Source of the DNA: Thermomicrobiales bacterium
Lineage (GTDB): Bacteria > Chloroflexota > Chloroflexia > Thermomicrobiales > UBA6265
DNA: 61,023 nt
Direction: 5' to 3'
NCBI GenBank assembly: GCA_035305265.1
Contig: DATGPC010000050.1
Location: 1-61,023 of the forward strand
A model generated the notes under the pieces. That model was given only the letters and a program-made list of their open reading frames with translations. It had not been told where the DNA came from and searched no databases. Numbering within the stretch: position 1 is the stretch's first letter; every line of letters starts with the position of its first letter. Of this stretch, positions 49,979 to 58,103 are shown in pieces. A program made the position numbers and the translations under genes.

Positions 49979-51028
49979 CTAAATCGGGTGCAGGCCCGGG
50001 AACTCCAGCCCGGTCTTCTCCGGGAAGCCCATTCGGATGTTCATCGACTGCACCGCCTGCCCCGAAGCACCCTTCATCAGGTTGTCCAGCGCAGCCATGA
50101 CGACAACGCGGTTCGAATGCTCATCGCGCTCGAAGCCCACGTCGCACCAGTTCGACCCACTCAGGAGCTTCGGCTCCGGATAACGGTGAACGCCGGTGTT
50201 CTCCTTCACCAGCCGCATGAACGGCTCGTCCTTGTACGCCTCGCGGTAGATCTTCCGCAGCCTCTTGTCGTCGAGGTCTTCCTTCAGGAAGACGTGGGAT
50301 GTCGCCAGGATGCCCCGCACGGCCTCGATCGACGTCGCCGAGAAGCTCACCTTCGGCGTCTCGCCGTGGAACGTCAGCTCCTGGATGATCTCCGCGCTGT
50401 GCCGGTGGCCGGTCGGCTTGAACGAGCGCATTGCGCCGCTCCGCTCGGCGTGGTGCGAGGCCACGCTCGGCGATCCCCCGGAGCCGGACGAGCCGGTCTT
50501 CGCCTCGACGATCACCGGCATCTCCAGGTCGACGACGCCAGCCATGAAGAGCGGATAAAGCCCGAGGATCGTCGTTGACGACATGCAGCCAGGAGACGCG
50601 ATCCAGTCCGCCGACTCGATCTGCTTCCGGTGTAGCTCCGGCATGCCGTAGACGAACGTGCCGAGCGCGTCCAGGTCCTCATGCTCGTGGCTATACCACT
50701 TCGGATAGTCACCGGCGTTGTTCAGCCGGAAGTCCGAACTGAGGTCGATCACGACCGGCGCGAGATCCCGCACCTTCGGCAGCATCTTCATCGAGACGCC
50801 GTGCGGCAGCGCGAGGAAGAGCACGTCGCAGGGCTCGAGCTTGTCGCTGGAGACGAACTTCAGGTCGGTGACGCCTCGCAGGTTCGGGTGCGTGCTCTTC
50901 ACGAACTTGCCGGCCTGCCGCTCCGAGGTGACCTGCTTCAGGGCGACCTCCGGGTGGAACAGCAGCAGCCGAACCAGCTCGCCGCCAGCGTAGCCAGACC
51001 CGCCGATCACAGAAACGTTGAGACTCAT
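49979..51028 (-). CDS. lysY: N-acetyl-gamma-glutamyl-phosphate / [LysW]-aminoadipyl-phosphate reductase
   Basis: [12 protein letters not shown] Rossmann start and SPGCMSTT active-site Cys (ArgC/LysY). Confidence 0.9.
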
Positions 51029-51933
51029 ACCGCTATTTCCTCCGCCTGGACCTGTCGCCTGGCTCGATTCCCCTCGCCGACGGCGAGCACGTAATCAATG
51101 ATCTTCGCCGGGATATCGACCCCGGTCGTGTGGATGGAGTTCCGGAACTCCATCGTGTAGTTCACTTCGTTGACCTGCAGTCCCTGGTCGGTCTCGAACA
51201 GGTCAACCGCAACCACCCCGCCGCCAACCGCCTGCGCCGCCCGGAGGGATACCTCGGACAGCTCCGGTGTCACTGGGCAGTTGCTCGCCTGCCCACCGCG
51301 TGCCGTGTTCGTGATCCAGTGCGGCGAGTCCCGGTAAATCGCGCAGATGGTCTCATCGCCTACCACGAACGACCGGATGTCCCGACCATTCTTCTCGACG
51401 TACTCCTGGATATAGAACGCGCCGTGATGGAACGACCCCAGCGTCACCTTGTGCTCCAGTAGCGCCTCGGCCGCGTCGCGGTCGTTCACCCGCGCCAGCA
51501 GCCTGCCCCACGACCCGATCGCCGGCTTGAGCACCACCGGATACCCCAGCTCCTCGATCGCCTCGATGGCCGACTCCGGCGTGTAGGCGATCCGCGTCCG
51601 TGGCATCGGCACGCCGTGTCGAGCCAGGGCCTGCGTCGTCAGCAGTTTGTCGCCGCAGATGTTCGCGACCTCGTACATGTTGACCGTCGGGATGCCCCAG
51701 TCGTTCAGCGTCCGCATCGTATACATCGCGCGCAGGTGGTTGATGCAACGCTCCAGCACGACGTCGCAGGCCATGAGCTCCGGATCCGGATGCACCGGAT
51801 CGAGCGTCAAGGTCCGGTCATCGAACCGAACGACCTCCACGCCCCGGCGCTCCAGCTCCGCGAGCAGCAGCTTTTCTTCCACGCGAACCCGCGACATGAG
51901 AATCCCCACGCGCGGAGAGTGTTCCTGTACCAT
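51025..51933 (-). CDS. lysX: RimK-type ATP-grasp ligase, LysX/ArgX family (copy 1, intact motifs)
   Basis: [55 protein letters not shown] and VAVDLFE...VNEVN. 4-nt overlap with lysY. Start at MVQEHSPR (51933). Confidence 0.85.
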
Positions 51934-52250
51934 CCGGAACGTCCTTTCCCGGCGCCCTGATGCGCCGGCGAACTGCACACGGCCCACCTCGTCAAGAGGA
52001 CGGGGGCCGCTCCGTGGTACCACCTCTGTTCGCGTGCTCCTCACAGATGCACGCCTTGGCGAGTGCGCGCCCGCGCACCCACGCCCGATAACGGAGGCTG
52101 CCGACCGGGTCTACTGACCGGGCGATTCTCGCCCGGCGTTCTTCCGGTTGCTCGGGGACCTTCATGTGACCACCCATGCCGCGACGCTCTCACCGTCTCG
52201 TCGCTCGCTGGGGCCGGGTTACCGGCCACATGTTCCCGTCAACGCAGGTA
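51934..52250 (-). promoter_or_regulatory. T-box riboswitch leader (non-canonical specifier loop) with predicted SD sequestration
   Basis: Minus strand: AG bulge AGCGA (52209..52205), distal loop GGUGAGA (52194..52188) closed by GCGACG/CGUCGC, specifier-side loop GAAGGUC (52163..52157), F-box-like CCGUUA. T-box core AACAGAGGUGGUACCACGGA (52030..52011). CGUCCU (52002..51997) is complementary to SD AGGACG (51945..51940). Confidence 0.75.
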
Positions 52251-52272
52251 TTCGGTTTTCAGGTTGCTTCGT

Positions 52273-52346: not shown

Positions 52347-52367
52347 TCCCGGACACATGGTCCGGGA
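52347..52367 (-). terminator. Hairpin after the lysX-like copy 2 stop (no U-tract)
   Basis: 7-bp stem TCCCGGA / TCCGGGA with a 7-nt loop, 10 nt after the stop codon. May separate the two T-box-controlled units. Confidence 0.35.
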
Positions 52368-52376
52368 CTACGAAGA

Positions 52377-53291
52377 TTACCCGACACCCGCCGCCGTCAA
52401 CGGGTCCATCACCCGCTCACGCGCCACCCGCGCCGCCTCCTCGACAATCTCTCCCGCGATATCACGGTCGGTCGTCGTCATCAGGCCCTTGAACTCGCCG
52501 CCGGTATTGATCTCGATGACCTTCAAGCCGTCATCGGTCTCGATCAGGTCGACACCAGCGAGCCGCGCCCCGACGACCTCGCAGGCCCGCAGGGCAAGCT
52601 CCTCGATCTCCGGCGTCACCGGACACGGTACCGACACCGCGCCCCGCGCCGCATTCGTGATCCAGTGCTCCGACGTGCGATACGACGCCGCGACGATCTT
52701 CCCGCCGACAACGTAGGCGCGAATATCCCGTCCCGGTTTCTCGACGTACTCCTGGATATAGAAGATTTCGTGATGGAAGGAGCCATGCTCGGACTTCTGC
52801 TGGATGATCGCCCGGGCCTGGTCCGGACCGTTCACCTTCGAGATGAGGCGACCCCAGGAGCCCGCGACCGGTTTCAGCACCGCCGGGTACCCGAGCTGCT
52901 CGCACGCCTCCAGCGCCGACTCCACCGAGTAGGCGACGAAGGTCTTCGGCGACGGTATCCCCGCCGCCTCCAGCACCATGCTGGCTCGGGCCTTATCGTC
53001 GCAGATCGTCACTGCCGCCGCGCTGTTCAGCGTTGGCACGCCCCATCGATTCATCGCCCAGAGCGTGTAGCCGGCGCGGGAGTGAACGACGCTGCGGTCC
53101 AGCATGACATCGACATCGACTCCACTCTCGGCGGCCGTCGGCGCCGACAGGTTCAGCGTCAGGTTGCGGTCGAAGACCGGCGTGACGATCATGCCGCGCG
53201 CCCGTGCCGCCGCGAGGATCAATTTCTCTTCCTGCCGGAGATAGGAGACGAGCACTCCGAGCCGGAGCCCCGCCCCACGTTCCTGTGACAT
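52377..53291 (-). CDS. RimK-type ATP-grasp ligase, LysX/ArgX family (copy 2, intact motifs)
   Basis: [56 protein letters not shown] and GVDLIE...VIEINT. Confidence 0.85.
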   Translation of the reverse strand: MSQERGAGLRLGVLVSYLRQEEKLILAAARARGMIVTPVFDRNLTLNLSAPTAAESGVDVDVMLDRSVVHSRAGYTLWAMNRWGVPTLNSAAAVTICDDKARASMVLEAAGIPSPKTFVAYSVESALEACEQLGYPAVLKPVAGSWGRLISKVNGPDQARAIIQQKSEHGSFHHEIFYIQEYVEKPGRDIRAYVVGGKIVAASYRTSEHWITNAARGAVSVPCPVTPEIEELALRACEVVGARLAGVDLIETDDGLKVIEINTGGEFKGLMTTTDRDIAGEIVEEAARVARERVMDPLTAAGVG

Positions 53292-53322
53292 GTATTTTTC
53301 CTTATCAGAGGAGCGCTCCGTC

Positions 53323-53345
53323 GTCTCGCACCATGCGTGCGAGAC
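53323..53345 (-). repeat. Copy a of the conserved spacer hairpin (GTCTCGCAC-GCATG-GTGCGAGAC)
   Basis: Perfect 9-bp stem in the 66-nt spacer between lysK and lysX-like copy 2. Confidence 0.55.
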
Positions 53346-53357
53346 ATGGCCCCGGGC

Positions 53358-54420
<1,063 letters not shown>

Positions 54421-54443
<23 letters not shown>

Positions 54444-55278
54444 CGCGTGCCTCCTGGACCGCGCCCGACGGGGAGACCAGCGCGGCAATGGCTTCCGCCA
54501 CCGTCTTCGTTCCCAGCAACGTGCTCTTGCGGAACTCGGCCACCGGGATCGCATCCCAGACAACCAGCTCGCCTTCAATCGTCGCGATCTCGATCGCCAC
54601 CACGGCAGCGCCGATCACATTCGCCGCCTTGCACGCAAGGTCGGTCATCGCTGCGGACGGAATCGGCCCGTCGTACGCGACAGCCTCGCCGCCCACCACG
54701 TGAATACGATGCAGATGCTCATCCGACGGCGCGCCGGCCTGGACGAGAATGACAGCCTCATCCGCGCTGCCCAGAACGATCCGGTGCTCGATGACCGCAT
54801 CAGCGGTATCCGCATCATGCAGCGTCGTCGACGCGGTTCCCGGGATCATCGGCAGCAGCGTGGCGGGATAGCCCACCATACCGGCCGCCTGAACACCGGT
54901 CGCCTCGGAGAAGGCGATCATCGTCTTCGGCCGCGGAAGCCCCGCTCGAGTCAGGGCCGTGGCGACTTCCTGACGGTTCCTCGTCGACGCCAGGCCGGCA
55001 TCGATGACCCGCACGCCGGACTGGCGAAGCAGCCTGGCAAACGGCCTGGCCACCTGCCGGTTCGTCGACCGGTCAATGATCACGCCATCGGCGCCGAGGA
55101 TACCGGCGTCGGAGGAGTCGCCCAGCGCCGCGATGTCCTGCGGCGCCGGGCACGGAGGCAAGGGCAGGCTCATGGGGGATACCGGCATCGCCACCGCTCC
55201 GGCCTCGCCGAAGGCGGTGATGAGCTGCTTCTCTTCCACACGAACGCGCGCGCAAAGCACGCCGACTGCCGTTGCCAT
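54421..55278 (-). CDS. Degenerate LysX/RimK-like ATP-grasp paralogue (predicted catalytically inactive)
   Basis: The N-terminus VGVLCARVRVEEKQLI aligns with both LysX copies. The motifs are replaced: GYPATLLPMIPGTAS for [14 protein letters not shown], ILVQAGAPSDEHLHR for [14 protein letters not shown], IEIAT...VWDAI for VDLxE...ExN, and there is no NTARGG. The frame is intact with high GC3. Confidence 0.7.
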
Positions 55279-55318
55279 GTCCGTTGACTTCTCCTTGCGA
55301 GGTCATATCCTCGCGTAG

Positions 55319-55339
55319 CCTCGCACCATGTGTGCGAGG
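55319..55339 (-). repeat. Copy b of the conserved spacer hairpin (CCTCGCAC-ACATG-GTGCGAGG)
   Basis: Perfect 8-bp stem in the spacer between lysW and the degenerate ATP-grasp gene. A second hairpin GCGAGG/CCTCGC sits next to it (about 55295..55315). Confidence 0.55.
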
Positions 55340-55367
55340 AATCGGCCACAGGCGGATATTCGGGCGA

Positions 55368-55535
55368 CTACTCGCCCCAGTCCTCGCCCTCTTCCGGCGC
55401 CAGCGCGAGCGTCACCGGATCGGTGCTTACAACTTCGAGATCCGCGCCACAATCACCGCACGGCACGATCTCGCCAACCTCAACGCCTTCGACCTCGACC
55501 TCGGCGTCACACTCGGGGCAAACTGCGGTAGCCAT
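55368..55535 (-). CDS. lysW: Amino-group carrier protein LysW
   Basis: 55 aa. Zinc-ribbon CPECDAEV...CGDCGADL and an acidic tail ending EEGEDWGE. AAGGGAAGG RBS upstream. Confidence 0.85.
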   Translation of the reverse strand: MATAVCPECDAEVEVEGVEVGEIVPCGDCGADLEVVSTDPVTLALAPEEGEDWGE

Positions 55536-55601
55536 TGCTGAACCTTCCCTTTCATCAATCCCTGGATCACGGCCGATCGCCGGACCTGACATACCTACGC
55601 G

Positions 55602-56678
55602 TTAGCTCTTGTCCATGACGGCCGAGGCATCGGACACCGTCGGGATGTCCTCACTCGTACGCTCGTCATGCAGCACCTGCAGCAGCACCGCCTTGTGGAC
55701 ATGCAGCCGCCCTTCGGCCTGGTCGAAGATGATCGACTGCGGGCCATCCGCAACCTCCGGCTCGACCTCCTGTCCGCGGTGCAACGGCAGGCAGTGCATG
55801 AAGACCGCCTCCGGTTTCGCGTGTGCCATGACCTCCCTGGTCACCCGGTAGGGCGCCAGCGCGACCAGTTTTCCCGGATTCTCCTGCTCGCCCATGCTCT
55901 CGTGCACATCGGTATAGACCGCATCCGCACCGTCCGCCGCCTCGAACGCCGAATCGACGAACTCCAATTTGGCACCGGTCTGCGCCGCAATCGCTTGCGC
56001 TTCGGCGACCACGGCCGGCTCCGGCGCGTAGTCCTTCGGCGTCGCGACGGACATGTTCACGCCGCTGGATGCCATCGCCAGCATCAGTGAATGGCAGACA
56101 TTGTTGCCATCACCCAGATAGGCGAATTTCAACCCGGTGAGGGTCCCGAAGTGTTCATACAATGCGAAAACGTCGCTCAACGCCTCGAGCGGGTGATCGT
56201 GCGAGGTCAGGGCGTTGAACACCGGCACCGTCGCGCCGCCGGCGAACTCATCCAGGTCGGCCGGGTCCGCGATGCGCGCGGCGACCGCATCGACGTAGCG
56301 GCTGAAGATCCGCGCCGTGTCCCCGATCGTCTCGCCTCGCTTGAGCTGCAGGTCCTGGATCCCAAGGAAGATCGCCTGCCCGCCCAACTGCTCCATCCCC
56401 GCCTGGAACGCCGTCCGCGTTCGCGTGCTCGGGTGCTGGAAGATCATCCCCAGCGTCTTGCCGCCCAGCCACGGATGCGGCTCCCCCGCCACGCGCATCG
56501 CCTTGAGCGTAAGCGCGGTCTCCAGGATCGCGGTGCGCTCGTCCGGGCTGAGATCGGTGTCGCGCAGGATGGACTTGCCGCGAAGCGATCCTGTCAGGAC
56601 CATTTCCTTGATCTCGCCGTCTCGCACCTGCTGGATCCTTCGTTCTTGCGTGGTGGTAGCTGTCGACACTGCGCTCAT
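55602..56678 (-). CDS. argF: Ornithine carbamoyltransferase-like protein (copy 1)
   Basis: FQHPSTRTR, LKRGETIGDTA, HPLEALSD, GDGNNV, DVHESMG and HCLPLHRGQEV. Confidence 0.8.
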   Translation of the reverse strand: MSAVSTATTTQERRIQQVRDGEIKEMVLTGSLRGKSILRDTDLSPDERTAILETALTLKAMRVAGEPHPWLGGKTLGMIFQHPSTRTRTAFQAGMEQLGGQAIFLGIQDLQLKRGETIGDTARIFSRYVDAVAARIADPADLDEFAGGATVPVFNALTSHDHPLEALSDVFALYEHFGTLTGLKFAYLGDGNNVCHSLMLAMASSGVNMSVATPKDYAPEPAVVAEAQAIAAQTGAKLEFVDSAFEAADGADAVYTDVHESMGEQENPGKLVALAPYRVTREVMAHAKPEAVFMHCLPLHRGQEVEPEVADGPQSIIFDQAEGRLHVHKAVLLQVLHDERTSEDIPTVSDASAVMDKS

Positions 56679-56688
56679 CCGGCTTCCC

Positions 56689-57783
56689 CTAGCACATCGT
56701 GTGCACAAGAAGCGCCTTGTGCATGTGAAGCCGGTTCTCGGCCTGGTCGAAGATCACCGACTGCGCACCATCGGCGACGTCGGCGGCGACTTCCTCGTCC
56801 CGGTGCATCGGCAGGCAGTGCATGAAGATCGCATCCGGCGCGGCCTTGGCCATGACATCGGACGTCACCTTGTACGGCGCGAGCGCAACGGCCCGGTTCG
56901 CGGCATCCATCTGGCCCATGCTGACGTGCACGTCGGTATAGACCGCGTTGGCGTCCTTCGCTGCCTCATACGGATCCGTCGTGACCTCGATCGTGGCGCC
57001 GGTGGACGAGGCGATCCACTGCGCGTGCTTCACCACGGCAGGATCGACCTGGTAGTTGGATGGGGCGGCGACCGAGACGCTGACGCCCATCGCGGCGCCG
57101 GAAAGCATGAGCGACGACGCCATATTGTTGCCGTCCCCGAGGTAGGCCAGCTTCAGCCCCTTCAGCTCTCCAAAGTTCTCCTGGAGCGTCATGAGGTCGG
57201 CCAGCGCCTGCAGCGGATGGCAGAGATCGGAAAGACCGTTCATGACCGGGATGGTCGCGGACGTCGCAAGCTGGATGAGGTCGTTGTGGTCCGCGACGCG
57301 GGCAACGATGGCATCCACGTACCGGCTGAGGATCTGCGCCGTATCGCCGATCGTCTCCCCCCGCTTCATCTGCAGGTCATTCACGCCGAGGAAGATCGCC
57401 TGGCCACCCAGCTGCGCCATGCCCGCCTCGAGCGAGACGCGGGTCCGGGTGCTCGGGTGCTGGAAGATGAGGCCAAGGGTCTTTCCGGTCAGGTAATGAT
57501 GCGGCTGGCCGGTCTTGGCGAGTCGCTTCAGCCGAACAGCGGTATCGACCAGCTCGGCGATCTCGTCCGGCGTGAGGTCGGTGTCGACCAGCACATGCCG
57601 CCCCCGCAGCCGGGTGCTGACGGAGAACGCCGGCAATGACTGCACCTGCGGGCCGCCGAGCAGCGAGGTGCGGTCCGACGCCGGGCCGGAGAGCTTCTGG
57701 CTCACGGACGGCACGGACCGAAGCTCCGGCGTGACATGCGGCAGGGCGGAATCGTCGACTGTGGTGGTGACCTGGTTCTGCAT
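56689..57783 (-). CDS. Ornithine carbamoyltransferase-like protein (copy 2, about 65-aa N-terminal extension)
   Basis: FQHPSTRTR, MKRGETIGDTA, HPLQALAD, GDGNNM, DVHVSMG and HCLPMHRDEEV. AAGGGAG RBS 6 nt before ATG 57783. Confidence 0.8.
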   Translation of the reverse strand: MQNQVTTTVDDSALPHVTPELRSVPSVSQKLSGPASDRTSLLGGPQVQSLPAFSVSTRLRGRHVLVDTDLTPDEIAELVDTAVRLKRLAKTGQPHHYLTGKTLGLIFQHPSTRTRVSLEAGMAQLGGQAIFLGVNDLQMKRGETIGDTAQILSRYVDAIVARVADHNDLIQLATSATIPVMNGLSDLCHPLQALADLMTLQENFGELKGLKLAYLGDGNNMASSLMLSGAAMGVSVSVAAPSNYQVDPAVVKHAQWIASSTGATIEVTTDPYEAAKDANAVYTDVHVSMGQMDAANRAVALAPYKVTSDVMAKAAPDAIFMHCLPMHRDEEVAADVADGAQSVIFDQAENRLHMHKALLVHTMC

Positions 57784-58103
57784 GGTGGACTCCCTTTGGT
57801 TCTGGTTCTTTCCTGCGAAAAGCCGCAGACGCCAGGTCGACTGGCCAATATGGCCTGTCGAACCAAAGGGGCGAGAGACGTCGAATCCCGCGGTACCACC
57901 CTTCTTGCGCGGCGAGCGCCACGCATCTCTCGGCTGTTGCTTCCATGGGAGCCACCCATCCGGACCTACTTGCGCGAACGCGCTTTCTTCGGCCGGCCGC
58001 TCATGGGCGCGTTCGGCGATCCTGCGCTGGTCCCGGGCTTCCACCGTCCCCGGGTCGCTATGGCGCATGAACCGCGTACTGGTCCCAGTCATCGCGGGCG
58101 GTG
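57784..58103 (-). promoter_or_regulatory. T-box riboswitch leader, Arg specifier (CGC), with predicted SD sequestration
   Basis: Minus strand: GAUGA K-turn (about 58093..58089), AGUA (58080..58077), AG bulge AGCGA (58059..58055), distal loop GGUGGAA (58045..58039), specifier GAA-CGC-G (58014..58008). T-box core AAGAAGGGUGGUACCGCGGG (57906..57887). CCUUUGGUUC (57869..57860) is complementary to GAACCAAAGG (57802..57793), which covers the SD. Confidence 0.85.

Follow-up and report, generated by a model that had tools for sequence, protein, structure and literature searches.

On contig DATGPC010000050.1 of a Thermomicrobiales bacterium, of which we analyzed the whole stretch of 61,023 nucleotides (hereafter, the window), we identified an RNA leader that is very probably a tRNA-Lys-responsive T-box riboswitch controlling lysX together with lysY, lysZ, a HAD hydrolase gene and lysJ, all part of the LysW carrier-protein pathway. 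The leader extends over positions 51934–52251 of the minus strand, from position 1 of the RF00230 model to the base before the lysX ATG, as delimited by cmscan and by reading the expression platform from the sequence; all window features given below lie on the same strand. Its ligand would be tRNA-Lys, because the specifier triplet in Stem I is AAG (52160–52162), followed by a purine, G 52159, and by the strand UCCC (52158–52155). The same triplet occupies this position in 31 of 31 orthologous leaders.

These orthologs were anchored on the LysX protein and not on RNA, so the sample is unbiased by the RNA itself. We sampled 80 loci from species-representative genomes, 80 from metagenomes, and 11 contigs with the closest LysX (83–92% identical). 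A T-box upstream of lysX (in L028, upstream of lysW-lysX; L-numbers denote loci) was carried by 31 of the loci. L015, in which the core reads GGUGGCAUC, escaped our strict regular expression and was recovered by cmscan; L001, with a T-box core present and Stem I cut by the contig end, was left out of the specifier count.

The initial annotation of this DNA had left three overlapping triplets in play, GGU, AAG and GAA, and had asked for an alignment of orthologous leaders across them; that alignment decides for Lys. When the register is anchored on the K-turn and the base helix, the window reads UG-AAG-G-UCCC-C-GAGC against GAA-CGC-G-CCCA-U-GAGC in a second, arginine-type T-box leader of the window (described below), and the triplet preceding one base, a CCCC-type strand, N and GAGC is AAG in every leader counted. 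The base helix lies at GGGA/UCCC in the cmscan alignment, which makes CAUGAAGG the 3′ side of the specifier loop, with AAG and its following G adjoining the helix. The base after AAG is A in 25 leaders, G in five and C in one. In the MAFFT alignment, AAG is among only 14 invariant columns of Stem I, alongside AG.GA, GGUG..A and K-turn residues. The specifier stretch of L161, whose LysX is 92% identical, reads AAGAUCCC / UGAAGAUCCC, and L013, which has a canonical S-turn, shows the order AGUA...GAA-C-AAG-A. Our specifier parser took only AAA or AAG at the triplet; the raw sequences and the MAFFT alignment agree with it independently. We infer that AAG suits a leader of 68% G+C.

A Gly (GGU) or Glu (GAA) specifier in place of AAG is extremely improbable. 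The window's UGAAGGUCCC does allow either triplet to be read, and GAA followed by G occurs in 20 of the 31 leaders, but the remaining 11 have CAA (nine) or AAA (two) in that register, which speaks against Glu. The by-position reading as GGU followed by C fared no better: GGU occurs in the window only, the other leaders having GAC (24), GGC (four), GAU (one) or GCC (one). Moreover, the top pair of the base helix (columns 16–99) is A-U in the window versus G-C in most leaders, and because of this compensatory change, we regard the U of “GGU” as base-paired with A16. The order GAA-C-AAG-A in L013 argues against both triplets, and the antiterminator bulge UGGU fits an A73 discriminator base, against the Gly reading; tRNA-Lys, unlike tRNA-Gly, is expected to have A73. 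The bulge starts with UGGU in 28 leaders and with UGGC in three (L014, L015 and L021), where it may track a different tRNA-Lys discriminator base.

A permissive cmscan aligned RF00230 at 52251–51993 over its full length (model 1–219) with 53.6 bits and an E-value of 6.5e-9 for the whole window, which bears out the earlier proposal of a T-box leader before lysX-lysY-lysZ-HAD-lysJ. The motifs then listed (AGCGA, GCGACG/CGUCGC, CCGUUA, the A1, bulge and A2 of the antiterminator, and ATG 51933) could all be located with coordinates. Stem I (52150–52245) comprises a K-turn (GCGUUGAC ... CGAGC), the base helix GGGA/UCCC (52237–52234 with 52158–52155, from the cmscan alignment), the specifier loop, middle helices, the AG bulge, and a distal helix and loop. 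The AG bulge AGCGA (52209–52205, within the invariant AG.GA columns), the distal helix GCGACG/CGUCGC (52204–52199 with 52186–52181, all six pairs covarying) and the distal loop AGACGGUGAGAG with GGUGAGA (invariant GGUG..A columns) together form the platform (52181–52209) expected to stack on the tRNA elbow. Stem II with its S-turn (CCGGAAGAAC ... CAGUAGACCCGG, 52105–52147) has GGAAGAA and AGUAGA in all leaders, and its basal and upper helices covary. The F-box CCGUUA (52089–52094) of the Stem IIA/B region, a predicted pseudoknot, is conserved and aligned to the RF00230 F-box, and the Stem III hairpin GCGUGC...GCACGC (52032–52054) is a covarying helix at alignment columns 112–135. The antiterminator, or discriminator (51995–52027, supported by the cmscan alignment and by A1 covariation), consists of A1, AGAGG with CCUCU (52027–52023 with 51999–51995), the 7-nt bulge UGGUACC (52022–52016), whose UGGU is the partner of the tRNA 3′ end, and A2, ACGG with CCGU (52015–52012 with 52003–52000). 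Of the features by which we judged T-box membership, we found a K-turn with a codon-purine specifier, the elbow platform, Stem II with its S-turn, the IIA hairpin, the F-box, Stem III, and a UGGN-bulge antiterminator.

The specifier loop itself is unusual. As the initial annotation had noticed, the helix CAUGUGGCC/GGUCACAUG sits directly on it, and the loop is reduced, with no AGUA S-turn partner. Its two sides had been given as AAC and GAAGGUC; with the base helix being GGGA/UCCC and not GGG/CCC, we revised them to A or ACA on the 5′ side and (UG)AAGG on the 3′ side. The specifier-loop S-turn is canonical in L013, and related forms occur in L018 and L090. Elsewhere in the family, large insertions (~40–130 nt, some palindromic) were seen in apical Stem II of otherwise intact Lys leaders (L090, L169, L171 and L086).

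Covariation supports the predicted helices along the leader. Across 19 leaders, 91% of Stem I cells are paired and 18 of 22 pairs show changes on both sides, a result equalled by none of 500 shuffles, and sliding the partner strand lowers pairing to 34–46%. In the part of the leader running from Stem II through the antiterminator, 20 of 36 pairs are compensatory across 20 sequences. They include pairs of Stem II, of the IIA hairpin, of Stem III and of A1, which switches between AGAGG/CCUCU and AAAGG/CCUUU in nine of the 20 sequences.

Several points weigh against a functional lysine T-box. Its score of 53.6 bits lies under the RF00230 gathering score of 93, and a default Rfam gathering scan of the window returned no match; that scan is silent on both leaders of the window since both score below 93, and the ortholog leaders, at 38–84 bits, are all below it as well. 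The AGUA/GAA S-turn of the specifier loop, normally conserved, is absent from the window and most orthologs, which have just A or ACA on the 5′ side. The sequences compared are phylogenetically related, such that the p-values overstate their independence. There is no U-tract behind the window's competing hairpin, making classical termination doubtful. No tRNA genes were found in the 61-kb window from which to read the anticodon and discriminator base of tRNA-Lys. Finally, a simple terminator/promoter scanner identified no promoter in the window; TTGACA-17/18-TAnnnT promoters are seen by eye just upstream in L009, L013, L014, L016, L018, L019 and L021, where the scanner called none either. Overall, judged by its predicted anatomy and covariation, the leader is a T-box that falls short only in the curated score and the S-turn.

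The leader is gone in the relatives L005, L008, L011, L017, L020, L084, L085 and L091, and L006 gave no match; in these close relatives, the two ligase genes are directly adjacent or have a short, T-box-free spacer between them. The leader was therefore lost or gained repeatedly within Thermomicrobiales. Such leaderless relatives (L005, L008, L011, L017, L020 and the unmatched L006), the lost U-tract and S-turn, and the sub-threshold Rfam score might together suggest that the leader of the window is a decaying, non-functional relic in this lineage. We hold this to be very unlikely: all tRNA-contacting motifs are intact, and the helices are kept by compensatory changes even among relatives with 84–92% identical LysX.

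By analogy with characterized T-boxes, a lysine-responsive switch would operate as follows. The AAG of Stem I (52162–52160) would pair with the tRNA-Lys anticodon CUU, or with UUU by wobble, while the AG-bulge/distal-loop platform would stack on the tRNA elbow. When the tRNA is uncharged, its 3′ NCCA would pair with UGGU in the 7-nt bulge and stabilize the antiterminator (52027–51995), giving the ON state. With charged tRNA, or with none, a competing hairpin (52009–51980) would capture the strand CCGUCCUC, giving the OFF state; this strand is both the 3′ strand of the antiterminator and the 5′ arm of that hairpin. In the window, the U-tract having decayed, the OFF state would amount to at most weak termination, and/or to a translation block by the released 5′ strand (52021–52010) across the start codon (51939–51926).

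The competing hairpin, CGGCCCCCGUCCUC-UUGAC-GAGGUGGGCCG (51980–52009), has 12 pairs and −17.4 kcal/mol and is homologous to the ortholog terminator. Its tail, GUGUGCAGUUCG, is not a U-tract, with three U in the first nine bases versus five to seven in most orthologs. Most orthologs have a stronger homologous hairpin with a U-rich tail behind it (UCGUUUUUCUC in L170); the tail in the window and L161 is GUGUGCAGUUCG or GUGUGCGGUUCG, and L162–L165 combine an intact T-box with a weak hairpin of −6 to −10 kcal/mol that lacks a U-tail. Since most orthologs have U-tracts and the window, L161 and L162–L165 do not, the ancestral output is best explained as transcription termination that has decayed in the window's lineage. 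The simple scanner called no terminators in the window; it called that of L013 and missed the evident ones of L016 and L170. Further downstream, just upstream of the Shine-Dalgarno (SD) sequence, a hairpin CCGGCGC-AUCAGG-GCGCCGG (51949–51968) appears in every fold and is kept with changed sequence in L001, L002, L168 and L170. The terminator region also collects insertions: L166 carries a 31-nt repeat, CCGGUAGCACCGACCCGACGUGGUCGGUGAA, at two sites, one upstream of its leader and one within the terminator loop, and L001 and L168 have ~70-nt insertions in that loop. The upper terminator seems to be disrupted by small mobile or repeat elements.

The hairpin could still act by pure transcription attenuation, terminating despite its poor tail, possibly with NusA or NusG, with any complementarity to the start region being incidental. 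This is a credible alternative, although on balance it falls short of being probable. Its homology to the U-tract terminators of most orthologs, including the close relative L170, as well as its 12 pairs and predicted stability, argue for attenuation, and transcriptional T-boxes typically have a Stem I that is long and bears an elbow platform (PMC7583486). The three U in nine tail bases argue against it, as do L162–L165, which have neither a stable hairpin nor a U-tail and yet keep an intact T-box. The gene order is a further objection. In window-like relatives, the leader begins 18–23 nt past the stop codon of an upstream ligase paralog and is therefore probably transcribed from upstream, so that attenuation there would also cut lysY, lysZ and lysJ off the upstream transcripts.

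The initial annotation had proposed a different output, in which the SD would be sequestered in the way assumed for the Arg leader. The SD of lysX is AAAGGA (51947–51942; the same lysX start is called in close relatives), and the start codon is ATG 51933–51931 (TIGR02144 LysX, 345 bits). The complementarity underlying that proposal is present: CGUCCU (52002–51997) matches AGGACG (51945–51940) in a 6-bp duplex of −9.7 kcal/mol. The pairing, however, is at chance level, its energy being equalled by 23% of random 25-nt windows of the same 61 kb (31% with a longer query), unlike that of the Arg leader, whose anti-SD duplex reaches −15.9 to −20.8 kcal/mol in the same test, in the top 1% of the background. 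The Arg T-box matches full-length RF00230 at 58101–57864 with 70.2 bits and has the specifier GAA-CGC-G. Its anti-SD CCCUUUGGUUCG (57870–57859) faces GAACCAAAGGG (57802–57792), which covers the argF SD, and the whole leader (57781–58101), from a Chloroflexota genome, resembles a translational T-box in which Stem I is long.

For the Lys leader, we consider it unlikely that the OFF state involves pairing of the antiterminator 3′ strand (CGUCCU) to the SD (AGGACG), the arrangement of the Arg leader and of actinobacterial ileS T-boxes. The missing U-tract favors such a translational T-box, as does the neighboring Arg leader, which clearly uses the same logic, and an SD-pairing fold reaches −45.3 kcal/mol when enforced on the six complementary nucleotides. 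Nevertheless, the unconstrained minimum free energy (MFE) fold, at −52, leaves the SD pairing unused, and background windows match its duplex at the rates given above. Because CGUCCU is already paired in the antiterminator and in the stronger competing hairpin nearby, SD pairing would also need a third state. Lastly, in the subclade L162–L165, the SD is AGGAUC and the duplex, at −5.4 to −6.6 kcal/mol, equals the background median.

Modeled folds point to another candidate, the start codon. The region UUCCGGAUGGUACA (51926–51939) is complementary to the T-box 5′ strand GGUACCACGGAG (52021–52010) and could be sequestered by it; in the window, the duplex spans −6 to +8 with −13.7 kcal/mol, and the unconstrained MFE fold holds 11 such pairs, a number that four of 60 shuffled start regions reach. 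In the unconstrained folds of quite dissimilar family members (the window, L162, L165, L170 and L089), the T-box 5′ strand pairs with the start region of lysX to form a helix that closes the platform. The duplexes span about −7 to +12 with differing start sequences: UUCCG-GA-UGGUAC in the window, CUCCGUAUGGUGC in L162, CCGUGGUAC in L089 (nine contiguous pairs), ACCGUG..ACCACC in L009 and UUCCGUGGGUACACC in L018, and the GGUAC element falls in differing codon phases across the start regions. Overall, the MFE fold has at least six such pairs in 24 of 31 leaders, with a mean of 8.3 versus 3.0 for shuffled start regions. The median duplex energy of the 31 leaders is −14.7 kcal/mol, compared with −10.3 for the start regions of 30 neighboring genes, −9.75 for composition-matched shuffled queries (z about −11.7) and −6.75 for lysX genes without a T-box (n = 108; −8.75 for the 12 close relatives among them, taking the best of several candidate starts).

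Other comparisons count against start-codon pairing. The start regions are only modestly enriched relative to arbitrary GC-rich windows of the same loci (median fraction about 0.17); the signal appears only versus other start regions, T-box-free lysX genes and shuffled queries. For the window alone, the pairing is borderline, being equalled by 18% of locus windows, four of 60 shuffled starts and 18 of 300 shuffled queries. The modeled accessibility of SD and AUG shifts little from ON to OFF (0.29 vs 0.49 in the window; family mean 0.37 vs 0.42); with GC-rich RNA, the model always finds some partner. A reversed-query control (−13.0 kcal/mol) is uninformative, since the core GGUACC is palindromic. 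We therefore propose only tentatively, as a possibility that we rate below an even chance by some distance, that the invariant T-box 5′ strand GGUGGUACCACGGAG doubles as an anti-start-codon element, pairing with about −7 to +12 of lysX when uncharged tRNA-Lys is absent, in what would be a translational or dual T-box.

If this holds, lineages with a decayed terminator and an operon-embedded leader (such as the window and L162–L165) would rely mainly on start-codon pairing for their output. Lysine would then shut off the lysX ligase only, and lysY, lysZ and lysJ would stay available for the arginine branch; we infer that such an operon-internal leader, blocking only lysX translation, offers a rationale for terminator loss. 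Start-codon pairing would also represent a second way for T-boxes to control translation. In the same region (51920–51940), the lysX start codon lies between the two arms of a 5-bp helix, GUUCC...GGAAC, which is also found in L161, L001, L002 and L166–L171; its 3′ arm derives from conserved Glu-His codons, and it recurs in sub-lineages with different start contexts.

The genes controlled by the Lys leader were assigned by NCBIfam matches. The first, lysX (51025–51933; TIGR02144, 345 bits), encodes a LysW–2-aminoadipate ligase and is followed by lysY/argC, lysZ, the HAD hydrolase gene and lysJ, down to 47088. Its nearest relatives are found in metagenome-assembled genomes of Thermomicrobiales and Sphaerobacteraceae, phylum Chloroflexota. 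The complete minus-strand cluster reads [Arg T-box, CGC]-argF-argF-like-lysW-weak ATP-grasp open reading frame (ORF)-lysK-second LysX-type ligase-[Lys T-box, AAG]-lysX-lysY-lysZ-HAD-lysJ, and the order lysW-X-lysK-paralog-[T-box]-lysX-lysY-lysZ-(HAD)-lysJ is conserved throughout Thermomicrobiales.

LysW ligases carry specificity signatures, F-I-T-NS in LysX, I-Y-V-GF in ArgX and Y-I-T-NA in the bifunctional type (PMC12998189). In an ungapped alignment to Thermus thermophilus LysX (1uc8), the ligase behind the Lys leader has F-I-T-NS and the upstream paralog Y-S-A-GL. Since F-I-T-NS is the LysX type, the Lys T-box lies directly 5′ of the α-aminoadipate-specific ligase. The upstream paralog is not LysX-type, and its glycine-plus-hydrophobic pair resembles that of ArgX. 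Judged by this signature, the paralog may be ArgX-like and load glutamate, and the bacterium may have a dual Lys/Arg LysW pathway. The ligase pair of the window would fit the logic of the Sulfolobus type, in which two ligases decide between lysine and ornithine (PMC12998189).

The operon behind the Arg leader (52377–57783) contains two ornithine carbamoyltransferase paralogs, lysW, lysK and the second LysX-type ligase. Between lysW and lysK lies a 285-aa ORF (54421–55278) with a weak LysX/RimK N-terminal match (69 bits), whose position is kept in all Thermomicrobiales loci at 37–55% identity. Directly past the paralog's stop codon is a GC-rich hairpin, UCCCGGAC-CAUGU-GUCCGGGA (52347–52367), and L162–L165 have differently sequenced hairpins at the same site, that of L163 being followed by UUUUUC. 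Lying between the two modules, this hairpin could act as a partial terminator or as an element for RNA processing or stability.

Taken as a whole, the cluster shows control of a shared carrier-protein pathway clearly divided between two leaders. The Arg (CGC) T-box stands ahead of argF-argF′-lysW-X-lysK and the ligase without a LysX signature, and the Lys (AAG) T-box immediately 5′ of the α-aminoadipate-specific LysX. This arrangement offers a sequence-based means to separate Lys-committing from Arg-committing ligases in uncultured Chloroflexota. With 31 leaders found, the Lys-leader family is widespread in Thermomicrobiales, and standard annotation leaves its members unmarked because all 31 score below the Rfam gathering cut-off.

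Lys, Glu and Gln are the least common T-box specificities in TBDB, and 3′-A is favored over 3′-G in two-codon families, which makes AAG a minority Lys specifier (PMC7778990). Lys T-boxes have been documented for Bacillus cereus lysK (LysRS1) and a few other LysRS genes, where they are very rare (PMC2916919), and for Bacillus lysine permeases (PMC2494555). A survey of Chloroflexi lists T-boxes for glyS, ileS, thrS, trpB, pheS, serS and valS only (PMC3766115, supplementary file 2). In the literature we searched, outside which the main 2008 survey lies, we found no report of a T-box linked to the LysW/α-aminoadipate pathway or to lys genes of Thermomicrobiales. The “lysX” of Sun et al. 2013 denotes a Bacillus transporter and not the α-aminoadipate-pathway ligase. 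The lysine riboswitch (L-box, RF00168) fills the same niche of lysine-dependent control, but it binds lysine directly through an unrelated fold, and a permissive scan of the whole window gave no RF00168 match at E ≤ 0.01.

Compared with known systems, the Lys leader most resembles the class I T-boxes (RF00230), such as those of Bacillus subtilis tyrS and glyQS. It shares their K-turn, codon and purine, AG bulge/distal platform, Stem II S-turn, F-box, Stem III and UGGN-bulge antiterminator, and the competing hairpin uses the 3′ strand of the antiterminator. It differs from them in scoring 53.6 bits, below 93, in having no specifier-loop S-turn and, in the window, no U-tract, and in lying, in window-like relatives, inside a gene cluster right behind the stop codon of another gene. 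Like the known Lys T-boxes, it would read tRNA-Lys through a Lys codon in Stem I, but those precede synthetase or transporter genes in Firmicutes, whereas the leader of the window precedes lysine genes of the LysW pathway (the α-aminoadipate route) in Thermomicrobiales. With the translational, class II T-boxes (actinobacterial ileS, PMC7583486) and the Arg leader of the window, it shares the lack of a U-tract and an SD and start codon within reach of the discriminator. In translational T-boxes, however, the antisequestrator pairs with the SD through its 3′ strand, and most of them, though not all, have a short, platform-free Stem I. The Lys leader has a long Stem I with a platform, its 3′ strand matches the SD at chance level, and its only above-background complementarity is that of the 5′ strand to the start codon, a polarity that, as proposed, would be the mirror image of the actinobacterial mechanism. 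The kind of switch is thus already known, and what the Lys leader adds is a rare specificity, a new regulon and a possible new variant of output.

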